In this document: positions 11,041 through 59,916 of the stretch, piece by piece | How positions within the stretch are numbered: position 1 is the first letter of the stretch | Layout of the letters: each line of letters opens with the position of its first letter | Assembly (NCBI GenBank): GCA_021771025.1 | Contig: JAETPW010000003.1 | Location: forward strand, 8,279-72,278 | Length of the DNA: 64,000 bases | From: Clostridiaceae bacterium | GTDB lineage: Bacteria > Bacillota > Clostridia > TANB77 > CAG-508 | Reading direction: 5' to 3' | Notes under the pieces: model-generated | Told to the model about the DNA's origin: nothing | What the model saw: the letters and a program-made list of their open reading frames with translations, nothing else | Database searches by the model: none | Program-made: the position numbers and the translations under genes

Positions 11041-11087
11041 GCCGTTAACGACGAAGGAGTTTTACGGATTAAAGATGCAAAAATCAC

Positions 11088-11203
11088 GCAATGCAATGGA
11101 GTGATTTCTGCATACCTCAGAAAAGCTCCTACTGCCTAAGTAAAAAGCAACGAAAAGCAATGAAGTGATTTCTGCATACCTTAAAAAAGCTCCTACTGCC
11201 TAA
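11088..11203 (+). repeat. Tandem direct repeat, two units of about 50 bp at about 90% identity, in the rplN-rplX spacer
   Basis: GCAATG(CAATG)GAGTGATTTCTGCATACCT(C/T)A(G/A)AAAAGCTCCTACTGCCTAA occurs at 11088-11139 and 11157-11203; a hairpin GCAAAAATCAC/GTGATTTCTGC overlaps unit 1. Confidence 0.7.
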
Positions 11204-30584: not shown

Positions 30585-32582
30585 ATGGAAGATTTAGTAG
30601 AAAGCATATTAGACTATGTAAGATCAGATTATACCGATTATGCAGTCATGATCAATGGTGAATGGGGATCTGGAAAAACTCATTTTTGGAACAATAAAAT
30701 TCGCAAAAAAATCGAATCCATGCAACTCAATGGCAAACGTTACACCACCATTTATATGTCGCTTTATGGAATTTCTAATTTAGAGGAAATCAGTAAAAAG
30801 ATTTTCATTGAAACAACACAATTGATGGACAAAAATTTAAGAAAATTCATGGATGCCAATGGGCAAACAACGATTCCTGAATATGCAAAAACAGGATTAG
30901 ATATGGCCAACTTTTTTGGTGTTACCCAAAATGGCGATAAAATCGATTATGCCGACTTTTTCTCCACAGATGATAAAGTATTATGCTTTGATGATTTAGA
31001 GAGGGCAAATGTTGATGTAATAGATATTTTAGGGTATATTAATAATTTCGTAGAACATGATCACATCAAAACCATTATCATTTGTAATGAAAAAGAATTA
31101 TCCACTAAATTAAAAAGTTCCAATCTAGAAATGAAAACCTTTATTGCTACGTATTTGCTAGATAAACAAGGAGAACTAAATAAAAGCGATAAACCAATGG
31201 TAGAAAAAATACAAAGCAAAATAGAGCACGTATTTGATAAAGCCAATGACTACGAAAGAATCAAAGAAAAATTAATCGGGGAAACATTTGAATATGCTCC
31301 CAAATTTGATTACATCATTAATGGAATATTAATGAGATATGAAAATGATCCAGAATTAATCCGTTTTCTCCGCGAAAATACAGGACTTATCATATCTACC
31401 TTTGAACGAAGTGGAACAAGAAACTTAAGAATTCTAAAACACGCCTTAAATGACTTTAAAAAGATTTTTGAAATGGTAAACAAAAGTTACCCAAATACCA
31501 GTCATCGAGTTATGCAAACCATGTTAATCTTTACCATTGCCATTTCCTTTGAAATCAAAGCAGGAAAAGTAACTAAAGATAAATTCATTAACATTGATGA
31601 CAACGAAGAATACCGATCAATTTTGGTATCTTCCCGTATATTAATGGATAATCGCCAGTTCTACATCAAAGAATTCGACAGTAACTATTATTACAACTTT
31701 AAAGCAGAATATCGATTCTTCAAATTTATTGAATATTACATCAGAACCAGAATCTTTGATATGAAAATCTTTAAACATGATATGGAAACCATTAGAAATA
31801 CCATCGACACAGAAAATCTACCGGGCTACAAACGCTTACTAACCGAAGAATACTGGAAAATTTCAGACGACGAATTCGATGGGGTAATCAGGTCAGTTGT
31901 TGAAGACGTAAAACAAGGCGAACTAGCCCTAATCGATATGGTCAAAATCTATGCTTATTTTAGTTATTTTTCCAAGAAAAATTTAATTGATTATGATAGT
32001 AAAACCATAAAAAGCATTTTCTTTAATGGAATGAACTTAGCCTCATTAAAATCAGAATATTGTCCAAATGTAGAAGAAGAACTAGGAAAAATTGCTTTAG
32101 AAGAGTTCACAGAAGATATGGAAGAAATCTTAAAACATTTCCATACCTTAAATAATCAATTATTAGATAAAATGTATCGTGAACAAGCAGAAGAAATTTT
32201 CAAATGTATCCCAATGAAAATGGAACAGTTCTATGAAAAATTTGATAAACAATGTATGAATGTACCAATCTTTAAATATTACGATCCATACCAATTGTTC
32301 CAAAGAATTTCTTGTGCAAGCAATGAAGATATTGTTTTAATTAAAGAAAAATTAGTCAATCGTGCAGACAAAAATCCAAAACAAATTGAAGCGGAAATGA
32401 AAAATATTAAATTATTAAAACAAATTTTAGATGATTACTTAAAAGAAAAAGAAACTACCATCAAAATTGTCATGTTAAAAGAATTCTCGAGAGAATTAGG
32501 TTATATTTTAGGAAAATATAAACCAACCTTTTTGCCTAGAAAAGAAGATAAAGAAGAAGTAAACGAAACAGTAGAAGGGTAA
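30585..32582 (+). CDS. KAP-family P-loop NTPase, 665 aa, solitary
   Basis: Walker A NGEWGSGKTHF, Walker B region LCFDDLERA, and a long helical C-terminal region typical of KAP NTPases. Confidence 0.7.
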   Translation: MEDLVESILDYVRSDYTDYAVMINGEWGSGKTHFWNNKIRKKIESMQLNGKRYTTIYMSLYGISNLEEISKKIFIETTQLMDKNLRKFMDANGQTTIPEYAKTGLDMANFFGVTQNGDKIDYADFFSTDDKVLCFDDLERANVDVIDILGYINNFVEHDHIKTIIICNEKELSTKLKSSNLEMKTFIATYLLDKQGELNKSDKPMVEKIQSKIEHVFDKANDYERIKEKLIGETFEYAPKFDYIINGILMRYENDPELIRFLRENTGLIISTFERSGTRNLRILKHALNDFKKIFEMVNKSYPNTSHRVMQTMLIFTIAISFEIKAGKVTKDKFINIDDNEEYRSILVSSRILMDNRQFYIKEFDSNYYYNFKAEYRFFKFIEYYIRTRIFDMKIFKHDMETIRNTIDTENLPGYKRLLTEEYWKISDDEFDGVIRSVVEDVKQGELALIDMVKIYAYFSYFSKKNLIDYDSKTIKSIFFNGMNLASLKSEYCPNVEEELGKIALEEFTEDMEEILKHFHTLNNQLLDKMYREQAEEIFKCIPMKMEQFYEKFDKQCMNVPIFKYYDPYQLFQRISCASNEDIVLIKEKLVNRADKNPKQIEAEMKNIKLLKQILDDYLKEKETTIKIVMLKEFSRELGYILGKYKPTFLPRKEDKEEVNETVEG

Positions 32583-40536: not shown

Positions 40537-42228
40537 TTAGTTCTTGACGTTTAGTTGATAAATAGTCAGATAATCAATAGAAGTAATTTCTTGAAATTCA
40601 ATTTCCTTATCTTTAGCATAATGTTCCTTTAAAAAAGTAGAAATCATAGCCAAATGAGATAAATCCTGATGATCAATTAAATAATAATGATCATGAGTTA
40701 ACAAAGAAGAATAAAGACCATCAATTTCATATTTTTCTTTAAAACGATAATATTTACTATCATACATAGACCAACTTCCTAAAGGGTGAATATTTTGAAG
40801 AATTCCTTTAGGAGAAGTAGTAAATAGATTAGTTTGATAATAGCGTAATTGCAAAGCACGAGTAGGATAAACATAAGCATTTTCAGGATGACGGTTAAGG
40901 TAAGTAATCAACTTATTATAAGTCGCTTCATTATATTCGATATTTTCCCAAGTATCACTTATCGTAAAAAAAGCATAGGATAATGACTGAGCTAACAATA
41001 AAAAGACAAGTACGATATGAATAGTAATATGGCTAAGCAATAATTTACTCGATAGTCGACTGTTAAGAAGTAGCAAAAAAGCAGGAATAAACAGCACAGG
41101 ATAAACTACACGAAAAACATCTCTTCCTAATACAATAAATAACAAAAATTGCAAAATCCCGGGGAACAACAACCAAAACTTCTTTTTGGGGCTAGCTTTC
41201 AAAGTAAGGCATAAAAAGAGATAGATGAGTAGTAAATAAGTACTAGGTAGCAAAAAACAAAGGGCAAAAAACTGCTTACTATTCTCAAAGATAGAATGGA
41301 AAAAAGAAATTACATCAAAATGAAGGAAACGAGATATTCCATTCATCTCTTGATTCATCAGATTAATCGAAGCAACACGATCATGAGAAAATACCATTTC
41401 ATCACCAGCTGAAAATAAATGAAATAAGCGTAAATCATTTTCAGACCAACCAACTTGATCAGTTATTTGATTAGTTTCTTTAAAATAAGCAGTATCATTT
41501 AATATGCTACGTTCTTTATCGTATTGGTAATAATAAGATTTACGCTCATCTTGATAACCTTGCCAATGAAAAAAGAAAAGGATGCCATATACCATAAACA
41601 AAACAAGATTAATGCCGATAAACATACGCAAAGTAGAAAGTCTTCTCTTCGCTTGGTGGTGACGCATTATTTCATAAATACCGATGCCAATCGCAAAGAA
41701 TAGATAAGAAATAAACACAAGATGACGAATCAGAAGAGCTAGTACAAAAGTAATCATCAAAATGACAAAATCAGATTTCCTACGAAACGTATAATAGGAA
41801 AGTTGATACACTAAACTAAGTAGCAAATAACAATAAGCAACAATAGTGTATTGCAACTTCAGCGTAATAAGTACATAAACAGGAACAATAAAAAGGAACA
41901 AAACCAAATAACGAAGACGGGAATGTTTCTGTTTTTGCAGGAAACGATAAGTCAGAATAGTAAAAATAATCAGTTGGCTACCCACTAAGAATAAAGCATA
42001 CCAATTTAAGGAATGAAAAAGCCCAAACAAAAAAACGAATAAGTTAGCTAACCAAACATGAACATAAAGTACATGACAGTCAGATTGCCCATAATAACCC
42101 GCTAGCATTTCTTGGATCATATAATCATCAATTTCATTGTATTGAATGAGGTGTAAACCAAACAAAAGAAGAGTGATCAACACAAAGACAATACCAATGC
42201 TTATCCATTTTTTCATGAAAAAGGTCAT
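40537..42228 (-). CDS. Polytopic membrane protein, probably a GT-C fold glycosyltransferase
   Basis: 563 aa with more than 10 TM helices and a C-terminal soluble domain; a DDY-type motif sits in the first loop. Confidence 0.45.
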   Translation of the reverse strand: MTFFMKKWISIGIVFVLITLLLFGLHLIQYNEIDDYMIQEMLAGYYGQSDCHVLYVHVWLANLFVFLFGLFHSLNWYALFLVGSQLIIFTILTYRFLQKQKHSRLRYLVLFLFIVPVYVLITLKLQYTIVAYCYLLLSLVYQLSYYTFRRKSDFVILMITFVLALLIRHLVFISYLFFAIGIGIYEIMRHHQAKRRLSTLRMFIGINLVLFMVYGILFFFHWQGYQDERKSYYYQYDKERSILNDTAYFKETNQITDQVGWSENDLRLFHLFSAGDEMVFSHDRVASINLMNQEMNGISRFLHFDVISFFHSIFENSKQFFALCFLLPSTYLLLIYLFLCLTLKASPKKKFWLLFPGILQFLLFIVLGRDVFRVVYPVLFIPAFLLLLNSRLSSKLLLSHITIHIVLVFLLLAQSLSYAFFTISDTWENIEYNEATYNKLITYLNRHPENAYVYPTRALQLRYYQTNLFTTSPKGILQNIHPLGSWSMYDSKYYRFKEKYEIDGLYSSLLTHDHYYLIDHQDLSHLAMISTFLKEHYAKDKEIEFQEITSIDYLTIYQLNVKN

Positions 42229-44710: not shown

Positions 44711-45001
44711 TTATTTTTTGAATGTATTAGCTAAATTTTCACATAAATCCAAATACAAATTTCGATGTTCTTCAGGAATAGAGTTTAGTAATTCACCGAA
44801 AGTGGTATCTACATTACTTAGGTTAATTCCCAATACAAGATAATCTAAATTAAGTGCTAAAACAGAGGCAATTTTAGTAATAGTGGATAAACTACAAATA
44901 CTTGTTCCACGTTCAATTTCACTCACATAAGAGGGAGATACATCAATCAATTCAGACAACTTTTCTTGTGTTAGTTTTAGTTCAACTCGTTTATTTTTCA
45001 T
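44711..45001 (-). CDS. XRE-family HTH transcriptional regulator
   Basis: LKLTQEKLSELIDVSPSYVSEIERGTSICSLSTITKIASVL. The start is chosen at MKNKRVEL; the longer ORF extends to 45193 through a hydrophobic segment. Confidence 0.55.
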   Translation of the reverse strand: MKNKRVELKLTQEKLSELIDVSPSYVSEIERGTSICSLSTITKIASVLALNLDYLVLGINLSNVDTTFGELLNSIPEEHRNLYLDLCENLANTFKK

Positions 45002-45167
45002 TCGTTTTCCGATTTCTACATAATTTAATTCATCCGTTTTTTTCACCTCATATATTATACCATATTGTATAACGAAAAAAATTCCAATAAAACCAACTAT
45101 AACTGTTGAAGATATACTATGACTGTGATAGAATAAAGAAAAAAAGGGAACGAAAGAGGAGATAAAA

Positions 45168-46369
45168 TGAACAAAGTTAAAAGAAAGTATCAATTAAAAA
45201 AAGCTCAAAAAATAATGGGGGATTACTTTAATTGCTTTAGTCATCACCATCATCGTACTTCTTATTTTAGCAGGGGTAACGATTGCTACATTGACAGGTA
45301 ATAATGGAATATTAACCAATGCTAATGAAGCCAAGAAAATGACCAAGATAGGAGAAATAAAAGAATTACTTCGGGATCAAACAAGCAGAACAAATTGAGG
45401 ACGATAACGTAGTAGAAAACTATGACAAATTAATTCAAAAACTAGAAGAACATCCTGAATATCTAATCATAGGAAATACCGTCAAAGCCAACTATCAGAA
45501 CTTTACTTGTGTAGAACAACAACTATTAGTACAAGATGCACACGTAGAAATAACAGGGGAAAACACAAAACCATATGGTAGTATAGAAAAAGAAATGAAA
45601 GACGGAAAAGTGATATTAACGATTTATGGCGTAGATGATGATACAGACATCAAAACAATCATTAGCCCTAATGGGGAAGAAAAGAAAATTAATTATGAAG
45701 AGGATAGAATTATTAATATAACTGACTTATTAACAGAGGTAGATCCATACGTTCAAACAACAGTAAAAAATTTTCACCATTATTTAAAAGAAATAGTTTA
45801 TCATGTACAAGATAAAAAAAGTGAAGAAATAGATTTACAAAAAGATAAGAAAAATATCATCGTAAATACTACTTGGTATTGGGGAATAAAGAAACCAAAG
45901 GTAATAAATCAATGTTTTGAAAATGGATTTTCTGTTTTAACAAATGGAAATGATAATAAAAGTGATCTAAAAATTATTAAGAGTTATGAACAAGGAAGTG
46001 CAGAAGAAATTCAAAATACTAAGATACTAAAATCTAATGAAATCACGTCACAAGACATCAATAGTAGTGAACAGGGGGAAGATGGCAAATCAATTACAAC
46101 GATCAAGTAGAAGTATGGAAAAAAGAGATAAAAACAGATGGAAGTGAAAGAGATTTAATTGGCTGTTGGAAAGGAGAAAAAGAAAATAAATGGATTGACC
46201 TTCATAATGAAAATATAGAAAATAATACAATATTCCGTAATAGTATTTATCGCCTTTCCGGAACGCGTAGCTTAACGTATGAAGTAACCCAAAACGGAAC
46301 ATACACATTTACATTAGTGGATTTGTGTGGGAATAGAGCTGAATTAAATGTTGATGTAAATGAATTATA
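45168..46369 (+). pseudogene. Type IV pilin-like/pseudopilin-like gene broken by three frameshifts (near 45215, 45360-45396 and 46108)
   Basis: MNKVKRKYQLKKAQKIMG then a frame change to ITLIALVITIIVLLILAGVTIATLTGNNGIL (prepilin-like hydrophobic N-terminus, no Glu at +5), then two further frame changes; the first occurs in a GGGGG run. Confidence 0.45.
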
Positions 46370-46406
46370 AGATATAAAAGAAAATGAAGAAGATAATTAA
46401 AAATTA

Positions 46407-46440
46407 AATTGGTCAGTGATGTCTGACCAATTTGATTTTA
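46407..46440 (+). terminator. Rho-independent terminator
   Basis: ATTGGTCAG/CTGACCAAT stem followed by a T-run. Confidence 0.65.
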
Positions 46441-46792
46441 TAAAATAGGTAAAACTTTAAGAGGGGCATATAATTAATGAATAAAATAATGTACCCAATT
46501 TTAAAGAAAGATAGAGAATATTTCACTAATGAAGTGGAGCATATTCTCTATTTTTACACCAAAAGACAAGATAATCAAAGATAAACTTAATATCAAAAAT
46601 GAATGATAAAATTAACAAAATCCAATGACAAAAATTATTTTTTATTGTATAATATAAAAGTAAAGATGAGTAAGACAAAAAAGCAAAGCTCAAAAATAAA
46701 TAGCAAAAGGGTTTATGGGTATCCACGGAAAAACCTAAATAGATTATACAAGGAAAATATGCTAGCAGACAAGCTAACATAAGCAAAGAAAA

Positions 46793-48022
46793 ATGAAATG
46801 TATATTAATGAATAAAAATACTCCTATAGCTTTAATTGAATACAACACTACCTATCACGCCATGGAAAAAATAGATAAAGAATACAACATAGACTATGCA
46901 CCTCTTTCTTTCATCAATGCGAAAAAAAATAGATCATTAAATGAAGTAAAAGTATTGAACGAATGGTTTAAAAGTAGAGGAATTCCATCATGGAGAAAAG
47001 ACTTAGAAAGACTATTAGAAAGGCTAAACATTACCTCACCAGATGAACTATTAACGAAAGCTTTTGCCTTATCTTTATCAGACCAATATTGGATAAAAGA
47101 AAAAGATAGTCATATCGAATGGAAAGATATTAACTTTTTCATGAATGATTTTGAATACAAAGGTTATCTAGCAGCCTCTTTAAGTAGCATAAACAAAACG
47201 GAAAAAATTAGTCTTCATTCACCTAATAATACAACAGATGGAATGTTACAAAAAGGCTGGATAATCGAAAATGGGAAAAGAATTCTAGTAAAGGGAACAT
47301 ATGCACCAAGCAGACAAGAACCAATCAATGAATGGTTAGCCTCTACCATAGGAAAAAGGCTAGGATTTGATTATTGTAACTATACTGTTGAAATTTCAGA
47401 CAATAAAATTATTTCAAAATGTGAAAATTTTGTTCATGAAAACGAAGAAATAATCACCGCAAAAGACATCTTTTCATCAGAACAAAAAAATAATAACGTA
47501 AGTGACCTAGAACATTATATTAACCTATTAGAAAAACACGAAGTGCCAAATGCAAGAGAAAATGTAGAAAATATGCTTATACTAGACTATATCATGATGA
47601 ATGACGATAGGCACCTAAGAAATTTCGGGGTAATAAGAAATGTTGATACACTAAAATGGGTAAAAACGACCCCTATCTTTGATACAGGAGAATCAATGCA
47701 ATGTAGAAAGTTGACTAGCGAAATCAACTTTTTAGATGGAGAAGGCAAGTTTTTTACCAATACAGAACGAAAATTTTCTACTTATTTAAGAGAAATAAAA
47801 GAAATAGAAAGAATTCCCTACCAAAAACTAAATAGAGTACAAGAAGAATATAAACAAATGCTAATAGATACTCAAAAATACACAGAAATAACAGAAGAAA
47901 GAACAGAAAAATTAGTACAAGGACTAGCATTAAGAATTGCACTTTTAGGAAAACAAATTGAAAAAGCAAAACATCGGTTAATGAGAAATCAAGAAAAAAT
48001 ATACTTAAACATAAAATGGTAA
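46793..48022 (+). CDS. HipA-like serine/threonine kinase (type II toxin family) without an obvious HipB partner
   Basis: HipA C-terminal catalytic motif LILDYIMMNDDRHLRNFGVIRN and N-terminal LSDQYWIKE-type region. Confidence 0.65.
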   Translation: MKCILMNKNTPIALIEYNTTYHAMEKIDKEYNIDYAPLSFINAKKNRSLNEVKVLNEWFKSRGIPSWRKDLERLLERLNITSPDELLTKAFALSLSDQYWIKEKDSHIEWKDINFFMNDFEYKGYLAASLSSINKTEKISLHSPNNTTDGMLQKGWIIENGKRILVKGTYAPSRQEPINEWLASTIGKRLGFDYCNYTVEISDNKIISKCENFVHENEEIITAKDIFSSEQKNNNVSDLEHYINLLEKHEVPNARENVENMLILDYIMMNDDRHLRNFGVIRNVDTLKWVKTTPIFDTGESMQCRKLTSEINFLDGEGKFFTNTERKFSTYLREIKEIERIPYQKLNRVQEEYKQMLIDTQKYTEITEERTEKLVQGLALRIALLGKQIEKAKHRLMRNQEKIYLNIKW

Positions 48023-55562: not shown

Positions 55563-56072
55563 TTAAGAACGAATAAATATTTTTTTAATTTCAGAAACAT
55601 ACATCGTATGATAATCTTTTTCGCTATACCACTGATCATCAAGAGAAGAATCAATAAAACAATCAGGTAGCATATCTTGAACATATAATTTTTGGGCAAT
55701 AACAACTAAATTAGCCTCTTCAAAACAAGGTGTTCCCTCCATAAAACAAGGTGTCAAACTGGAATTTTTCACCTTATCTTCATCTCTACCTGAAACAGTA
55801 CCTAAATAAGACAAAGTTTTACGATAAGACTCATCAAAAAAACAAAGGGAAAAAGTATCATGAGAATCGATAAACTCCTTAGTATAACGCTGAGGACGAA
55901 TAAAAGTAAAAGCCACAGGCTTTCCCCACATAATCCCTAAACTTCCCCAAGAAGCAGTCATGGTATTTATTTTTTCTTCATCACCAGCAGTAACTAACAT
56001 CCAATCTTTTCCAATTTGATTAAAGGGATTTATTGTTAAATCATTAGCTGATATTTCTTTCCATAAATTCAT
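55563..56072 (-). CDS. Flavin reductase-like/flavoredoxin (FMN-binding split barrel) protein
   Basis: TMTASWGSLGIMWGKPVAFTFIRP...; length about 169 aa. Confidence 0.6.
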   Translation of the reverse strand: MNLWKEISANDLTINPFNQIGKDWMLVTAGDEEKINTMTASWGSLGIMWGKPVAFTFIRPQRYTKEFIDSHDTFSLCFFDESYRKTLSYLGTVSGRDEDKVKNSSLTPCFMEGTPCFEEANLVVIAQKLYVQDMLPDCFIDSSLDDQWYSEKDYHTMYVSEIKKIFIRS

Positions 56073-56248
56073 TTTTTAACCTCCTATTTTTTCTCTTATT
56101 ATACTATGTAAAAGGGGAAAAATAAATACAATAAAATAAAAATGAAAAAATAGGAGCCAAAAGGGTCATAGCATATAGAAAAATTTTTTCTATATGAATA
56201 ATCAATAACTTAAAAACTAAGAGGTTAACTCCAGCACAAAAAAGCCAG

Positions 56249-56607
56249 AACTAACCTCTAATATATTTAAATAATAACATTTACATCTCCTGCTCGGAGC
56301 ATTTCCATAACCATATTTACATTCTAATATATTTAAACAATAACTGTGCTACTAAACTTAAAAAGAATTGATTAATTCCACTTTATATTCTAATATATTT
56401 AAATAATAACTTAACATTTTAACAATATACAAGAAACCAAGTCGACCTTTATATTCTAATATATTTAAATAATAACGTACAAACATAGCAGAATTGCCAA
56501 ACAATTTAACAGTCTTTATATTCTAATATATTTAAATAATAACAAAACAGAAAATATAAATTCGTAAAAAATTATAACTTTATATTCTAATATATTTAAA
56601 TAATAAC
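56249..56607 (-). CRISPR. Orphan CRISPR-like array: six 30-bp repeats (consensus CTTTATATTCTAATATATTTAAATAATAAC on the + strand) with five unique spacers of 34-37 bp. The leftmost repeat is degenerate, so the leader is inferred on the right and transcription on the minus strand
   Basis: Repeats at 56249-78 (degenerate), 56315-44 (3 mismatches), 56381-410, 56447-76, 56514-43 and 56578-607; spacers are 36, 36, 36, 37 and 34 nt. A candidate minus-strand promoter TTGATT-16-TATGAT lies at about 56650-56695. No cas genes are in the window. Confidence 0.6.
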
Positions 56608-56918
56608 AGGTAGCCCAACAACCCCACCATTTTTCTATATTTTCTTCTTCCATTCTGTCGATCTATACCAATCATACCACAAATTATCATAAAATCAATA
56701 ACATTTTCAAAAAAGTTAATATGACTAGCTTTTCAGCATCTGTCGTACTCCCCAATTTTTTACATTATTAAAGGTCGACAGATTTATCTAAAAAACGAAA
56801 AAGAAACTTCCCATAAAAACATTCTCTCTCAAAACAAAAAATACCTCAAACACTAGACATTACTCCCAAAAAAAGATATAATAACCTTAGCAAAATCAAG
56901 AGAGGATACAAAAAGGAA

Positions 56919-57395
56919 ATGAGAAAAAAAGTATTATTCATCTCCAGCACAGGAGGGCACTTAAGCGAATTATTAGAACTAAAACCACTATTTGAAAAAT
57001 ACGATTATCACATCATCACCGAAAAAGATAAAGCAAACGAAAGTCTAAAAGAGATATACGGAGATAAATTATCATTTTTGCCCTATGGTACAAGAGCTAA
57101 ACTTTTGTCTTATTTAGTTAAGTATTTTCTTTTATGTTGTCAAACAGTGTATTATTATTTTAAGATTAGACCTAAAGTAATCGTAACCACAGGAACTCAC
57201 ACAGCTGGGCCAATGTGCTTATTAGGAAAACTATTGGGAAGCAAAATTATCTATATCGAAACCTATGCCAATACTAATCAAAAAACAGCAACAGGAAGAT
57301 TATTATACCCAATTGCTGATTTATTTATCGTGCAATGGGAAGAAATGTTAACCATTTACCCCAAAGCAGTATATGGAGGGACAATCTATTCATGA
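56919..57395 (+). CDS. Alg14-like glycosyltransferase membrane-anchor subunit (PssD/Cps14F/EpsE-like)
   Basis: LFISSTGGHLSELLEL matches the Alg14 GSGGHTxEM motif; the stop overlaps the start of the next gene (ATGA). Confidence 0.7.
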   Translation: MRKKVLFISSTGGHLSELLELKPLFEKYDYHIITEKDKANESLKEIYGDKLSFLPYGTRAKLLSYLVKYFLLCCQTVYYYFKIRPKVIVTTGTHTAGPMCLLGKLLGSKIIYIETYANTNQKTATGRLLYPIADLFIVQWEEMLTIYPKAVYGGTIYS

Positions 57396-57889
57396 TTTTT
57401 GTAATGTTAGGAACTCAAAATAATAGTTTTCATCGTTTATTAGAAAAAATAGATGAATTAATTGAAAAAGAAGTCATTCAGGAAGAAGTAATTGTACAAG
57501 CAGGATACACAAAATATGAATCAAAGAATATGGAAATATTTGATATGATCCCTAGAAATGAATTAGAAAATTACCAAAAGGAAGCAAGTTTAATCATTAC
57601 TCATGGAGGGGTAGGATCAATTGTTTCTTCATTAAAACAGGGAAAAAAGGTAATTGCTGTACCTCGCAAGCACGAATATGGTGAACACGTAAATAATCAT
57701 CAACAAGAGATCATCAAAGAGTTTGAAGAAAAAGGGTATATCATTGGTGTTTCAGGAGTAGAAGAATTACCAAAAGCATGGGAAAGATTAACTACCTTTA
57801 AACCTAAACCATATCAAGCGGGCAATCAAAAAATGTTATCGCTTATTGAAGATTTTATTGATTCTCAAATGACAAAAGAAAAGAAGTAA
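57392..57889 (+). CDS. Alg13-like glycosyltransferase catalytic subunit (PssE/Cps14G/EpsF-like, Glyco_tran_28_C)
   Basis: IFVMLGTQNNSFHRL... and ITHGGVGS motifs; GGAGGG RBS; translationally coupled to the Alg14-like gene. Confidence 0.7.
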   Translation: MIFVMLGTQNNSFHRLLEKIDELIEKEVIQEEVIVQAGYTKYESKNMEIFDMIPRNELENYQKEASLIITHGGVGSIVSSLKQGKKVIAVPRKHEYGEHVNNHQQEIIKEFEEKGYIIGVSGVEELPKAWERLTTFKPKPYQAGNQKMLSLIEDFIDSQMTKEKK

Positions 57890-57914: not shown

Positions 57915-59916
57915 ATGAACATTAACGATAATACCACAAATCAAAACCAAGAAAAGACTAACCATCAAGAAAAAGAAACAAAATCAAAAAATAAAGAAAA
58001 AGTAGCTTTAACACAAAATCAAAATAGCAAAAGAATTCTGCAAAAAGGATTGAATTCTATCGCTTTTCCGATAGTAATAGGAATAGGGCTACTCATAAAA
58101 ACAGTATTTTTTTATACACAAACTATAGCAAGTACAGAAGGTCTAGCTATGGAAACAATGATAGGAACGACTATTATTTTAACTACTCTTACCTGCTTTC
58201 TAGCAATGTTACCAAATCGTGCTAGAATTTTAACAACATTAGGATTAGATGCTGTCTTAAGTCTGATTTTATGGGGTGATGGGTTATATTATCAATACTC
58301 CAATAATGTATTATCCGTTTCCCAAATTACCAACTTACAATATGGAGAAGAAATCATGGGAACTCTTCCTATGTTACTACAGGTAAATCAACTGATCTAT
58401 ATGATCGATATCTTAATTGTCATTGGATTAATCCTAGGAAAAGTAATCTCCATTAGCCAAAAACCAAAAAAATCAAAGAAACAAAGACTAGGAAAAATCC
58501 TATTTGGCATAATAGGAAGTATTTTATTTGTTGCCACCTGTGTACATTATGGGGAAAAGGGAATCGATAAATCATATAATAAAGACCTACAAATTAGAGA
58601 AGCAACCATTTTTGGATACCATCTGCTAGATATAGAAAGTATGATCAATAGTAAAAAACAAGCACCATTTAAGACAAAACAAGAAATGCTAGCTATTTAT
58701 GAACCGCTAAAAGAAAGGTATGAACAAAATTACGGAGATCAGGTAATAGAGGGGTTAGAAGGAATAGCCAAAAATAAAAATGCCATCATTGTACAATTAG
58801 AATCATTTCAAGAATTTGTTTTGCACCAAACCATTGATGGGCAAGAAATCACACCAAACTTGAACCGCTTTTTAACAGAAAATATTGAATTTACAGATAT
58901 GCACATGCAAAGTTACTCATCTACCGCAGATTCAGAATTTTCAACAATAACCTCTTTCTATCCTATGGAAAATGGAATGTCATTTAGCCGCTATGATGGA
59001 AATCACTATGATGATATTTTTGCTATGTTCCATGAAGCTGGTTACCAAACAGGATATATGCACGGAAATGTCCGGATCTTTCTGGAATCGAAATAATGTG
59101 TATAAACGTTTGCCGGTAGATCATATCGACTTTATTGATCAATTTGAAGACACATCAGAAATGGTAAATGGCTATCTATCCGATGAACTACTATATATTC
59201 AGGCTGTACAAAAACTAAAAACGAGGCAAACACAAGATAAACCGATTTTTCAATTTATTGTAGCTGCCTCTTCGCACACAGGGTTTGGCTTAGAAGGTCT
59301 GCAAGACAGAAGCAAAATTTCCATTGATGTAGGAAAATACCAAGACACATATTTTGGTCATTATCTAGAAGCGGTAAACTATGCAGACTATGCCTTTGGT
59401 GTATTATTAGAAAAATTAAAACAAGAAAATTTATACGAAGACACGGTCATTTTAGTTTTTGGGGATCATAATGGGCTACCTATGGTTAACGAAGAATTAG
59501 AAGACTTTCTACAAGAACGTCATGGAGAAATAAAGGAAATTGACCGAAAACTAACCTATACACGAGTAGCTGCTGGCATGAGAATTCCGGGAATAGAGCC
59601 ACTAAAAATCAATAAACCAATTAGTAAACTAGATATTAAACCAACTTTCTCTATTCTTTTTGGTCTATCAGACGGAATCTCATTAGGAACTAGTTTTTTT
59701 GGAACCAAAGATTACGTTTCTTTAAACAACGAAAGAATTATTGCAGAAGATAGTTATTTTGACGAAGTTTGGTACAAGCGATCAACAGGAGAAATCATTG
59801 ACGAAGAAAATTGTGCAGAAGACCAAAAACAAAAATTAATCCAAAGAGTACAAAACATGAAAGAAGAATTAGCCATTTCTTTATCAACCAATATTCATAA
59901 CCTGCTAGCACAATAA
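57915..59916 (+). pseudogene. LtaS-family sulfatase-domain protein (lipoteichoic acid synthase-like) split by a +1 frameshift near 59070
   Basis: N-terminal five TM helices; frame 1 ends ...YMHGNVRIFLESK, frame 2 continues GSFWNRNNVYKRLPVDHIDF...FGDHNGLP. This matches the contiguous LtaS region HG..FWNR.QVYK. Confidence 0.7.

Follow-up and report, generated by a model that had tools for sequence, protein, structure and literature searches.

The array and its genomic setting

The window, by which is meant the whole 64,000-nucleotide stretch of DNA that was analyzed, has a GC content of 32.8% and a strongly A-rich plus strand. Its genes include a ribosomal protein operon, RecD2, TyrRS, RNase J, GltX, SerRS, SpoVT, DUF4364 and hrcA-grpE-dnaK-dnaJ. 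To judge from SpoVT, DUF4364, RecD2, RNase J and LtaS, the host appears to be a Clostridia-type member of the Bacillota. Past dnaJ the gene order is a flavin-reductase-like gene on the minus strand, a repeat array, a 311-nt gap, an Alg14-like gene, an Alg13-like gene, a frameshifted LtaS gene, RuvB and a GT87-like gene. The flavin reductase-like and Alg14/Alg13-like flanks named in the original prediction were recovered at the coordinates listed below. The array occupies positions 56249-56607 and consists of six 30-nt repeats and five unique spacers, with start-to-start distances of 64-67 nt. Repeat coordinates are given on the plus strand, and the sense of the array is the minus strand.

55563-56072, minus strand: flavin-reductase-like gene
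56180-56209, minus strand: candidate relic repeat past the hairpin (GTTATTGATTATTCATATAG...), with an orthologous site at 746-775 of contig L002
56210-56259, minus strand: terminator-like hairpin (hairpin 56259-56220) of 16 pairs with a T-rich tail; one found against 0.2 expected in shuffles
56249-56278, minus strand: terminal repeat R1; first 22 nt (transcribed sense) intact, last 8 nt swapped for the 5' arm of the hairpin
56279-56314, minus strand: spacer 5 (oldest), 36 nt
56315-56344, minus strand: R2, older variant GTTATTGTTTAAATATATTAGAATGTAAAT (G7, G25, T30), closest to the sister-strain and Clostridium I-B repeats
56345-56380, minus strand: spacer 4, 36 nt
56381-56410, minus strand: repeat R3, same sequence as R6
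56411-56446, minus strand: spacer 3, 36 nt
56447-56476, minus strand: repeat R4, same sequence as R6
56477-56513, minus strand: spacer 2, 37 nt
56514-56543, minus strand: repeat R5, same sequence as R6
56544-56577, minus strand: spacer 1 (newest), 34 nt, unique; unmatched in the window, fetched loci, phages and plasmids
56578-56607, minus strand: R6, the leader-proximal and newest repeat, minus strand GTTATTATTTAAATATATTAGAATATAAAG; abuts the conserved leader
56608-56918, minus strand: leader and divergent intergenic region, 311 nt, with 1 SNP relative to the JGI strain
56683-56710, minus strand: best array promoter-like site (TTGAAA, 16 nt, GATAAT; 10 of 12 consensus matches), about 75 nt upstream of R6
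56919-57395, plus strand: Alg14-like gene
57335-57889, plus strand: GT28 C-terminal (Alg13-like) gene

The six 30-bp repeats and five spacers of 34-37 bp that had been predicted are borne out by these coordinates and by the count of a 23-nt repeat core (TTCTAATATATTTAAATAATAAC). This core has six matches at no more than one mismatch in the 64-kb window, every one of them within the array, where chance would give 0.00 (100 dinucleotide-preserving shuffles). The spacers are 36, 36, 36, 37 and 34 nt long from left to right on the plus strand, are mutually unrelated and have no relative in the window or in the loci fetched from other assemblies. The locus is therefore built as a CRISPR array is defined, with near-identical repeats in the range of 23-50 nt placed regularly between unique spacers of similar length. 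The repeat contains 10% GC (three C and no G), not the approximately 13% first given. On the minus strand it starts with GTTATT, and its older form ends with GAATGTAAAT. The repeats are unstructured (minimum free energy of 0 to -0.9 kcal/mol, not better than shuffles) and show little dyad symmetry.

Repeats R3-R6 are mutually identical, and R2 differs from them at three positions. These three mismatches were already counted correctly in the original prediction, but R2 is an older variant that is also found in sister strains and not a product of decay. Likewise, the leftmost repeat had been called degenerate, and its eight left-end nucleotides are indeed replaced; however, it was cut after 22 nt and fused to the hairpin, and was not worn down by point mutation.

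In the leader, a GC-rich block adjoins the first repeat, and promoter-like sites are present on the minus strand for the array and on the plus strand for Alg14. A second minus-strand site (56698->56671) overlaps the best one. The minus-strand sites lie approximately 65-100 nt upstream of the first repeat; they are consensus matches only, and shuffled sequence gives no fewer such sites. The leader also contains three TCTGTCG motifs within 130 nt, two direct (56654-56660 and 56739-56745, plus strand) and one inverted (56776-56782, minus strand), and only one further copy occurs elsewhere in the 64-kb window. These motifs may be operators, bound by a regulator that acts either on the array promoter or on the divergent one of Alg14. 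At the other end, the trailer hairpin probably stops read-through from the array ahead of the flavin reductase promoter.

Variation between strains

The same locus was retrieved from other assemblies by exact-protein look-ups of the flanking genes. Six contigs of the same strain (L008 and L013-L017) are 100% identical to the window over their overlap and break inside the array, with L013-L017 starting in the leader-proximal repeat and L008 in R3. Two further strains were recovered, one from JGI metagenome 3300044856 (the JGI strain; contigs L012 on the leader side and L034 on the trailer side) and one designated strain 2 (L002, L003 and L007). The flanks of both are 98.3-98.8% identical to the window at the DNA level. 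L012 contains 19 full repeats and one partial repeat, and L034 contains two consensus and two decayed repeats. The array of the JGI strain has at least 23 repeats and at least 22 spacers, compared with five spacers in the window strain, and strain 2 has at least three repeats with spacers of its own. None of the 27 complete spacers is common between the three strains, while the repeats are kept in all three. Over all strains the spacers measure 34-40 nt, with a mean of 36.1 nt (n=27).

The comparison also settles the polarity of the array. The 311 nt on the Alg14 side are near-identical in the other strains while the spacers wholly differ, which places the leader on the right, as proposed from the window alone. 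In all three strains, truncated or decayed repeats are confined to the flavin-reductase side, opposite the leader. At the position of the candidate relic repeat, strain 2 (L002 746-775) retains nt 1-18 of the repeat unchanged. Thus, a conserved leader lies at one end and degenerate repeats lie at the other. The proposed minus-strand orientation stands as well, since these repeats and a minus-strand terminator-like hairpin lie at the left and it is the minus-strand repeat that aligns with the Clostridium I-B repeats described below.

Each strain has a homogeneous repeat variant of its own, GTTATTATTTAAATATATTAGAATATAAAG in the window strain, GTTATTGTTTAAATATATTAGAATATAAAT in the JGI strain and GTTATTGTTTAAATATATTAGAATGTAAAC in strain 2, and the last base of the repeat varies by strain (G, T or C). 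Repeats R3-R6 carry A7, A25 and G30, whereas the older R2 carries G7, G25 and T30 like the sister strains. The three derived changes common to R3-R6 fit a process in which each acquisition duplicates the repeat next to the leader. In addition, four perfect strain-specific copies indicate that several acquisitions took place after the split from the sister lineages.

Several other differences were seen at the locus. A segment of approximately 500-600 nt between the trailer and the flavin reductase gene is present in the two other strains and missing from the window strain, and the terminal repeat R1 of the window looks like the junction of the deletion of that segment. The segment encodes a charged protein of 59-60 amino acids (L034 12116-12295, plus strand; L002 263-445, minus strand) that appears ribbon-helix-helix-like by eye and has no Pfam or PADLOC family. 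This ORF was rejected as a part of the system; its product is charged, whereas the type I toxins that adjoin C. difficile arrays are hydrophobic. In strain 2, the sequence upstream of Alg14 (L020 1-72) has an 11-nt stretch in common with the leader. Only 72 nt are present there, and strain 2 seems to have a deletion of approximately 190 nt inside the leader. Such a deletion, if true, would have left strain 2 with one of the three TCTGTCG motifs and without the minus-strand sites that best resemble promoters. It was also considered whether cas genes lie between leader and Alg14 in this strain; this is unlikely, as the 72 nt covered look like a leader deletion. Beyond the Alg13-like gene, the LtaS gene (57915-59916, plus strand) is split by a frameshift into two overlapping ORFs of 393 and 314 amino acids. 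The split is also present in independent Logan contigs (L013-L016) and the gene is intact in the JGI strain (666 amino acids, L012 2587-4587); thus it looks like a strain-specific pseudogene and not a sequencing error.

In a relative that is further removed (84% identity in Alg14; L031 5067-6937), Alg14 comes immediately after dnaJ, across a gap of 167 nt. This adjacency indicates that the flavin reductase gene and the array are an insertion specific to the lineage of the window. Neither an array nor cas genes were present at this locus in the relatives found via Alg14 homologues.

Repeat family, spacer matches and cas genes

A full-text search showed that subtype I-B repeats published for C. 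difficile, C. tetani and C. septicum have GGAATGTAAAT at their 3' end. The published repeats are GTTTTAGATTAACTATATGGAATGTAAAT in C. difficile (PMC7064742), GTATTAGTAGCACCATATTGGAATGTAAAT in C. tetani and GTTTTATCTTAACTAGTGGAATGTAAAT in C. septicum (PMC6677821, PMC8696124). The older variant R2 was compared with these and with a type II repeat of C. tetani, and each alignment was set against 2000 shuffles.

R2 and C. difficile I-B: 24 identical positions, 0 of 2000 shuffles as good
R2 and C. septicum I-B: 22 identical positions, 0 of 2000 shuffles as good
R2 and C. tetani I-B, locus 1: 23 identical positions, 0 of 2000 shuffles as good
R2 and C. tetani I-B, locus 2: 17 identical positions, 119 of 2000 shuffles as good
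R2 and C. tetani type II: 23 identical positions, 15 of 2000 shuffles as good

For the other three repeat variants, 0-3 of 2000 shuffles were as good against the first three I-B repeats, and 40-386 were as good against C. tetani locus 2 and type II. The C. tetani locus 2 repeat thus shows no excess similarity over shuffles. The similarity extends to the 3' eight-nucleotide tag of the I-B repeats (ATGTAAAT), with R2 ending in AGAATGTAAAT, and the current consensus tag (ATATAAAG) is off the Clostridium tag at two of eight positions. Spacers of 34-40 nt also agree with the variable lengths of approximately 35-39 nt that are usual for the Clostridium I-B family. That family is further characterized by cas6-cas8b-cas7-cas5-cas3 effector genes and a 5' CCN PAM, and neither cas genes nor protospacers were located in the DNA and collections searched. 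When the repeat was compared with reference repeats, three of the published Clostridium I-B sequences matched and the Rfam CRISPR-DR families did not, even at E = 10. On these alignments, the repeat quite probably belongs to the Clostridium I-B family.

The likeness to C. difficile I-B (PMC4556805, PMC7064742) covers low-GC, unstructured repeats of 29-30 nt ending in ...GAATGTAAAT, spacers of approximately 36-37 nt (35-39 nt, mean 37, in C. difficile), leaders of approximately 200-300 nt and degenerate terminal repeats. In contrast, the current tag here is AUAUAAAG and not AUGUAAAU, the last repeat base varies by strain, and no cas operon or second array was located in the approximately 76 kb and the collections searched. 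The host also differs, being an uncultured, gut-type member of the Clostridia with 33% GC whose array is known from sequence. The C. tetani locus 1 and C. septicum I-B arrays (PMC6677821, PMC8696124) have repeats of the same family, with 22-23 and 21-22 identical positions respectively. C. tetani repeats are also unstructured, and C. septicum arrays have strain-specific spacer content. However, those arrays lie beside cas6-cas8-cas7-cas5-cas3-cas4-cas1-cas2, whereas the neighbors here are housekeeping genes.

A type II (Cas9) array was rejected for several reasons. The repeats are 30 nt and not 36 nt, the spacers are 34-40 nt and not fixed near 30 nt, and no Cas9 was present among the best 25 of 59 PADLOC families matched. 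The sole inverted match that could represent a tracrRNA anti-repeat is 15 nt long, 87% identical and within the Alg14 coding sequence. In addition, the C. tetani type II repeat is only weakly similar, with 15-386 of 2000 shuffles as good compared with 0-3 for I-B.

The spacers were compared with phage, plasmid and self sequences, as had been suggested for the array, and no match was obtained. There was no significant match among INPHARED phages or PLSDB plasmids, no exact match in IMG/VR for seven spacer cores, and no protospacer in the window and fetched loci. One plasmid match (H49, C. beijerinckii) was discarded as a chance AT-rich match, as it carries no repeats. For an uncultured host these results carry little information, and its phages may be unsampled.

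The original prediction also stated that the window has no cas genes, and this agrees with both searches. No Cas family was present among the best 25 of 59 PADLOC families matched (102 ORFs of at least 75 amino acids), and Pfam identified none in approximately 40 ORFs. A further 12 kb of flanking sequence was taken from other assemblies, so that approximately 76 kb in total was inspected. No cas genes were present in the approximately 10 kb further right (PMT_2, QueH, RhuM, three unknown ORFs, an HD protein and Fic) or the approximately 2 kb further left (a PNP/UDP phosphorylase and a DapB-like gene), and cas10, csm and cmr genes were not seen in the 76 kb. A second array with the same repeat was sought in GTDB species representatives, with exact and degenerate cores, and in IMG/VR, with no match in either. 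One metagenome scan also gave no second array; its sole match (L001) was rejected as a chance match within a coding region. Finally, repeat-encoded peptides (LYILIYLNNN and YYLNILEYK) were sought as spurious ORFs across sister arrays, and nothing scored.

Other features were observed in the window. The ORF at 30585-32582 (plus strand) encodes a 665-amino-acid KAP-family P-loop NTPase that matches the PADLOC candidate defense family PDC-S49 (E = 2e-81). At 44711-48022 lie an XRE-type HTH gene (minus strand), an unknown ORF of 171 amino acids and a HipA-like kinase of 409 amino acids (PADLOC PDC-M03A, E = 2e-22), which may form a toxin-antitoxin or defense module. Additional small ORFs occur in this region in the JGI strain (L034 169-2496). 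An ORF of 563 amino acids between a GTPase gene and serS (40537-42228, minus strand) has no Pfam or PADLOC match. In the ribosomal protein operon, a 64-nt unit is tandemly duplicated (11079-11203, two copies, 88% identical) within the unusually long L14-L24 gap of approximately 290 nt.

Interpretation of the array

The locus is almost certainly a genuine CRISPR array. Its anatomy and polarity, the turnover of spacers within one species, the way in which repeat mutations spread from the leader side and the membership of the repeat sequence in the I-B family were all observed directly. Constant repeats and leader, full replacement of spacers, polar repeat variants and a terminator at the trailer are what would be expected of an active or recently active CRISPR locus. 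The interpretation that best accommodates the data, and which we consider rather more probable than its negation, is a Clostridium I-B-type array sited apart from its cas genes; it is likely that those genes lie elsewhere in this genome. On this interpretation the array adds a hitherto uncatalogued member to the Clostridium I-B-type repeat family, in a cas-distal arrangement that is already known. In C. difficile, 12 expressed arrays are spread over the chromosome, with just two near cas operons (Boudry et al. 2015, PMC4556805). Those arrays contain 3-19 spacers, and most are far from the two cas operons and are thought to be served in trans (PMC4556805).

Transcription, Cas6 processing, a I-B effector and cas genes elsewhere in the genome are the four elements that we infer for such an array. 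The transcript would start in the 311-nt leader beside Alg14, run leftward on the minus strand from R6 to R1 and end at the hairpin (56259-56220). By analogy, a Cas6-type endoribonuclease encoded elsewhere would cut the unstructured repeats eight nucleotides before their 3' end. The resulting crRNAs would be approximately 66 nt long with the 5' tag AUAUAAAG, or AUGUAAAU in the oldest unit, and the corresponding tags would be ...AAAU in the JGI strain and ...AAAC in strain 2. The crRNAs would direct a Cascade/Cas3 complex to spacer-matching DNA, and Cas1-Cas2(-Cas4) would add new spacers at the leader-repeat junction, duplicating the first repeat each time. The array of the window strain is possibly inactive now, given its short length (five spacers) and truncated trailer.

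Other explanations were weighed against the cas-distal I-B array. The array could be real and yet an inert relic, in a lineage that recently had Cas but lost the cas operon, leaving five spacers that are neither used nor renewed. The absence of a cas gene from approximately 76 kb would agree with this, as would the small number of spacers (five, where the JGI strain has at least 22), a trailer deleted up to a repeat, and the observation that approximately 10% of C. difficile strains are without a complete cas operon. However, the leader and repeats show no decay, the four perfect strain-specific copies R3-R6 record several acquisitions after the split, and the DNA inspected is a minor part of the genome. 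A relic is therefore the less probable outcome, although one that deserves some weight. Orphan CRISPR arrays are similarly isolated between unrelated genes but are often decayed or frozen, whereas the window array was recently active, as indicated by its homogeneous new repeats and by spacers that are wholly replaced from one close strain to the next. It is improbable that the array serves an RNA-targeting effector of type III, whether by itself or jointly with I-B through a shared Cas6 as in many Firmicutes. Unstructured 30-nt repeats with an eight-nucleotide tag are also typical of type III. Read in the crRNA sense, T-rich spacers outnumber A-rich ones by 16 to 7 (window, L012, L034 and L002), and 85% of host coding-strand 36-mers are A-rich, a weak hint that crRNAs lean antisense to transcripts. 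This bias is not significant (binomial p = 0.09), cas10, csm and cmr are absent from the inspected DNA, and the closest published repeats are all reported with I-B gene sets.

The original prediction left room for a CRISPR-like array of another kind, such as regulatory or structural repeats or the iterons of replication or partition. The lack of cas genes in the 76 kb, of spacer matches and of an Rfam CRISPR-DR match in the databases searched, together with the little dyad symmetry of the repeat, would be compatible with that reading. Nevertheless, iterons and regulatory repeats do not swap all inter-repeat DNA between strains that are 98.5% identical. The repeat length, the 64-70 nt spacing, the one flank conserved despite spacer replacement and the significant similarity to experimentally used type I-B repeats also argue against it, and strain-wise spacer turnover combined with the I-B similarity makes a non-CRISPR array very unlikely indeed. 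Only slightly less remote is a lineage whose array diversifies fast with no recognizable cas genes, acquisition and interference being performed by mobile-element machinery or an undescribed protein set. If that were true, the shifted and strain-variable 5' tag (AUAUAAAG, ...AAAU, ...AAAC) would reflect a different partner.

Current understanding is not challenged by this locus, since C. difficile offers well-documented cases of arrays that lie far from cas genes and are used in trans; the only route to a surprise would be a whole genome shown to be cas-less despite the evident recent spacer turnover. The chief value of the finding is in annotation, in that it marks this uncultured Clostridia species as one with adaptive immunity like that of Clostridium type I-B, either now or in the very recent past. 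In addition, a hypervariable array at the fixed dnaJ/Alg14 locus may serve as a marker for strain typing, and its spacers may provide a link between host and phage in metagenomes.
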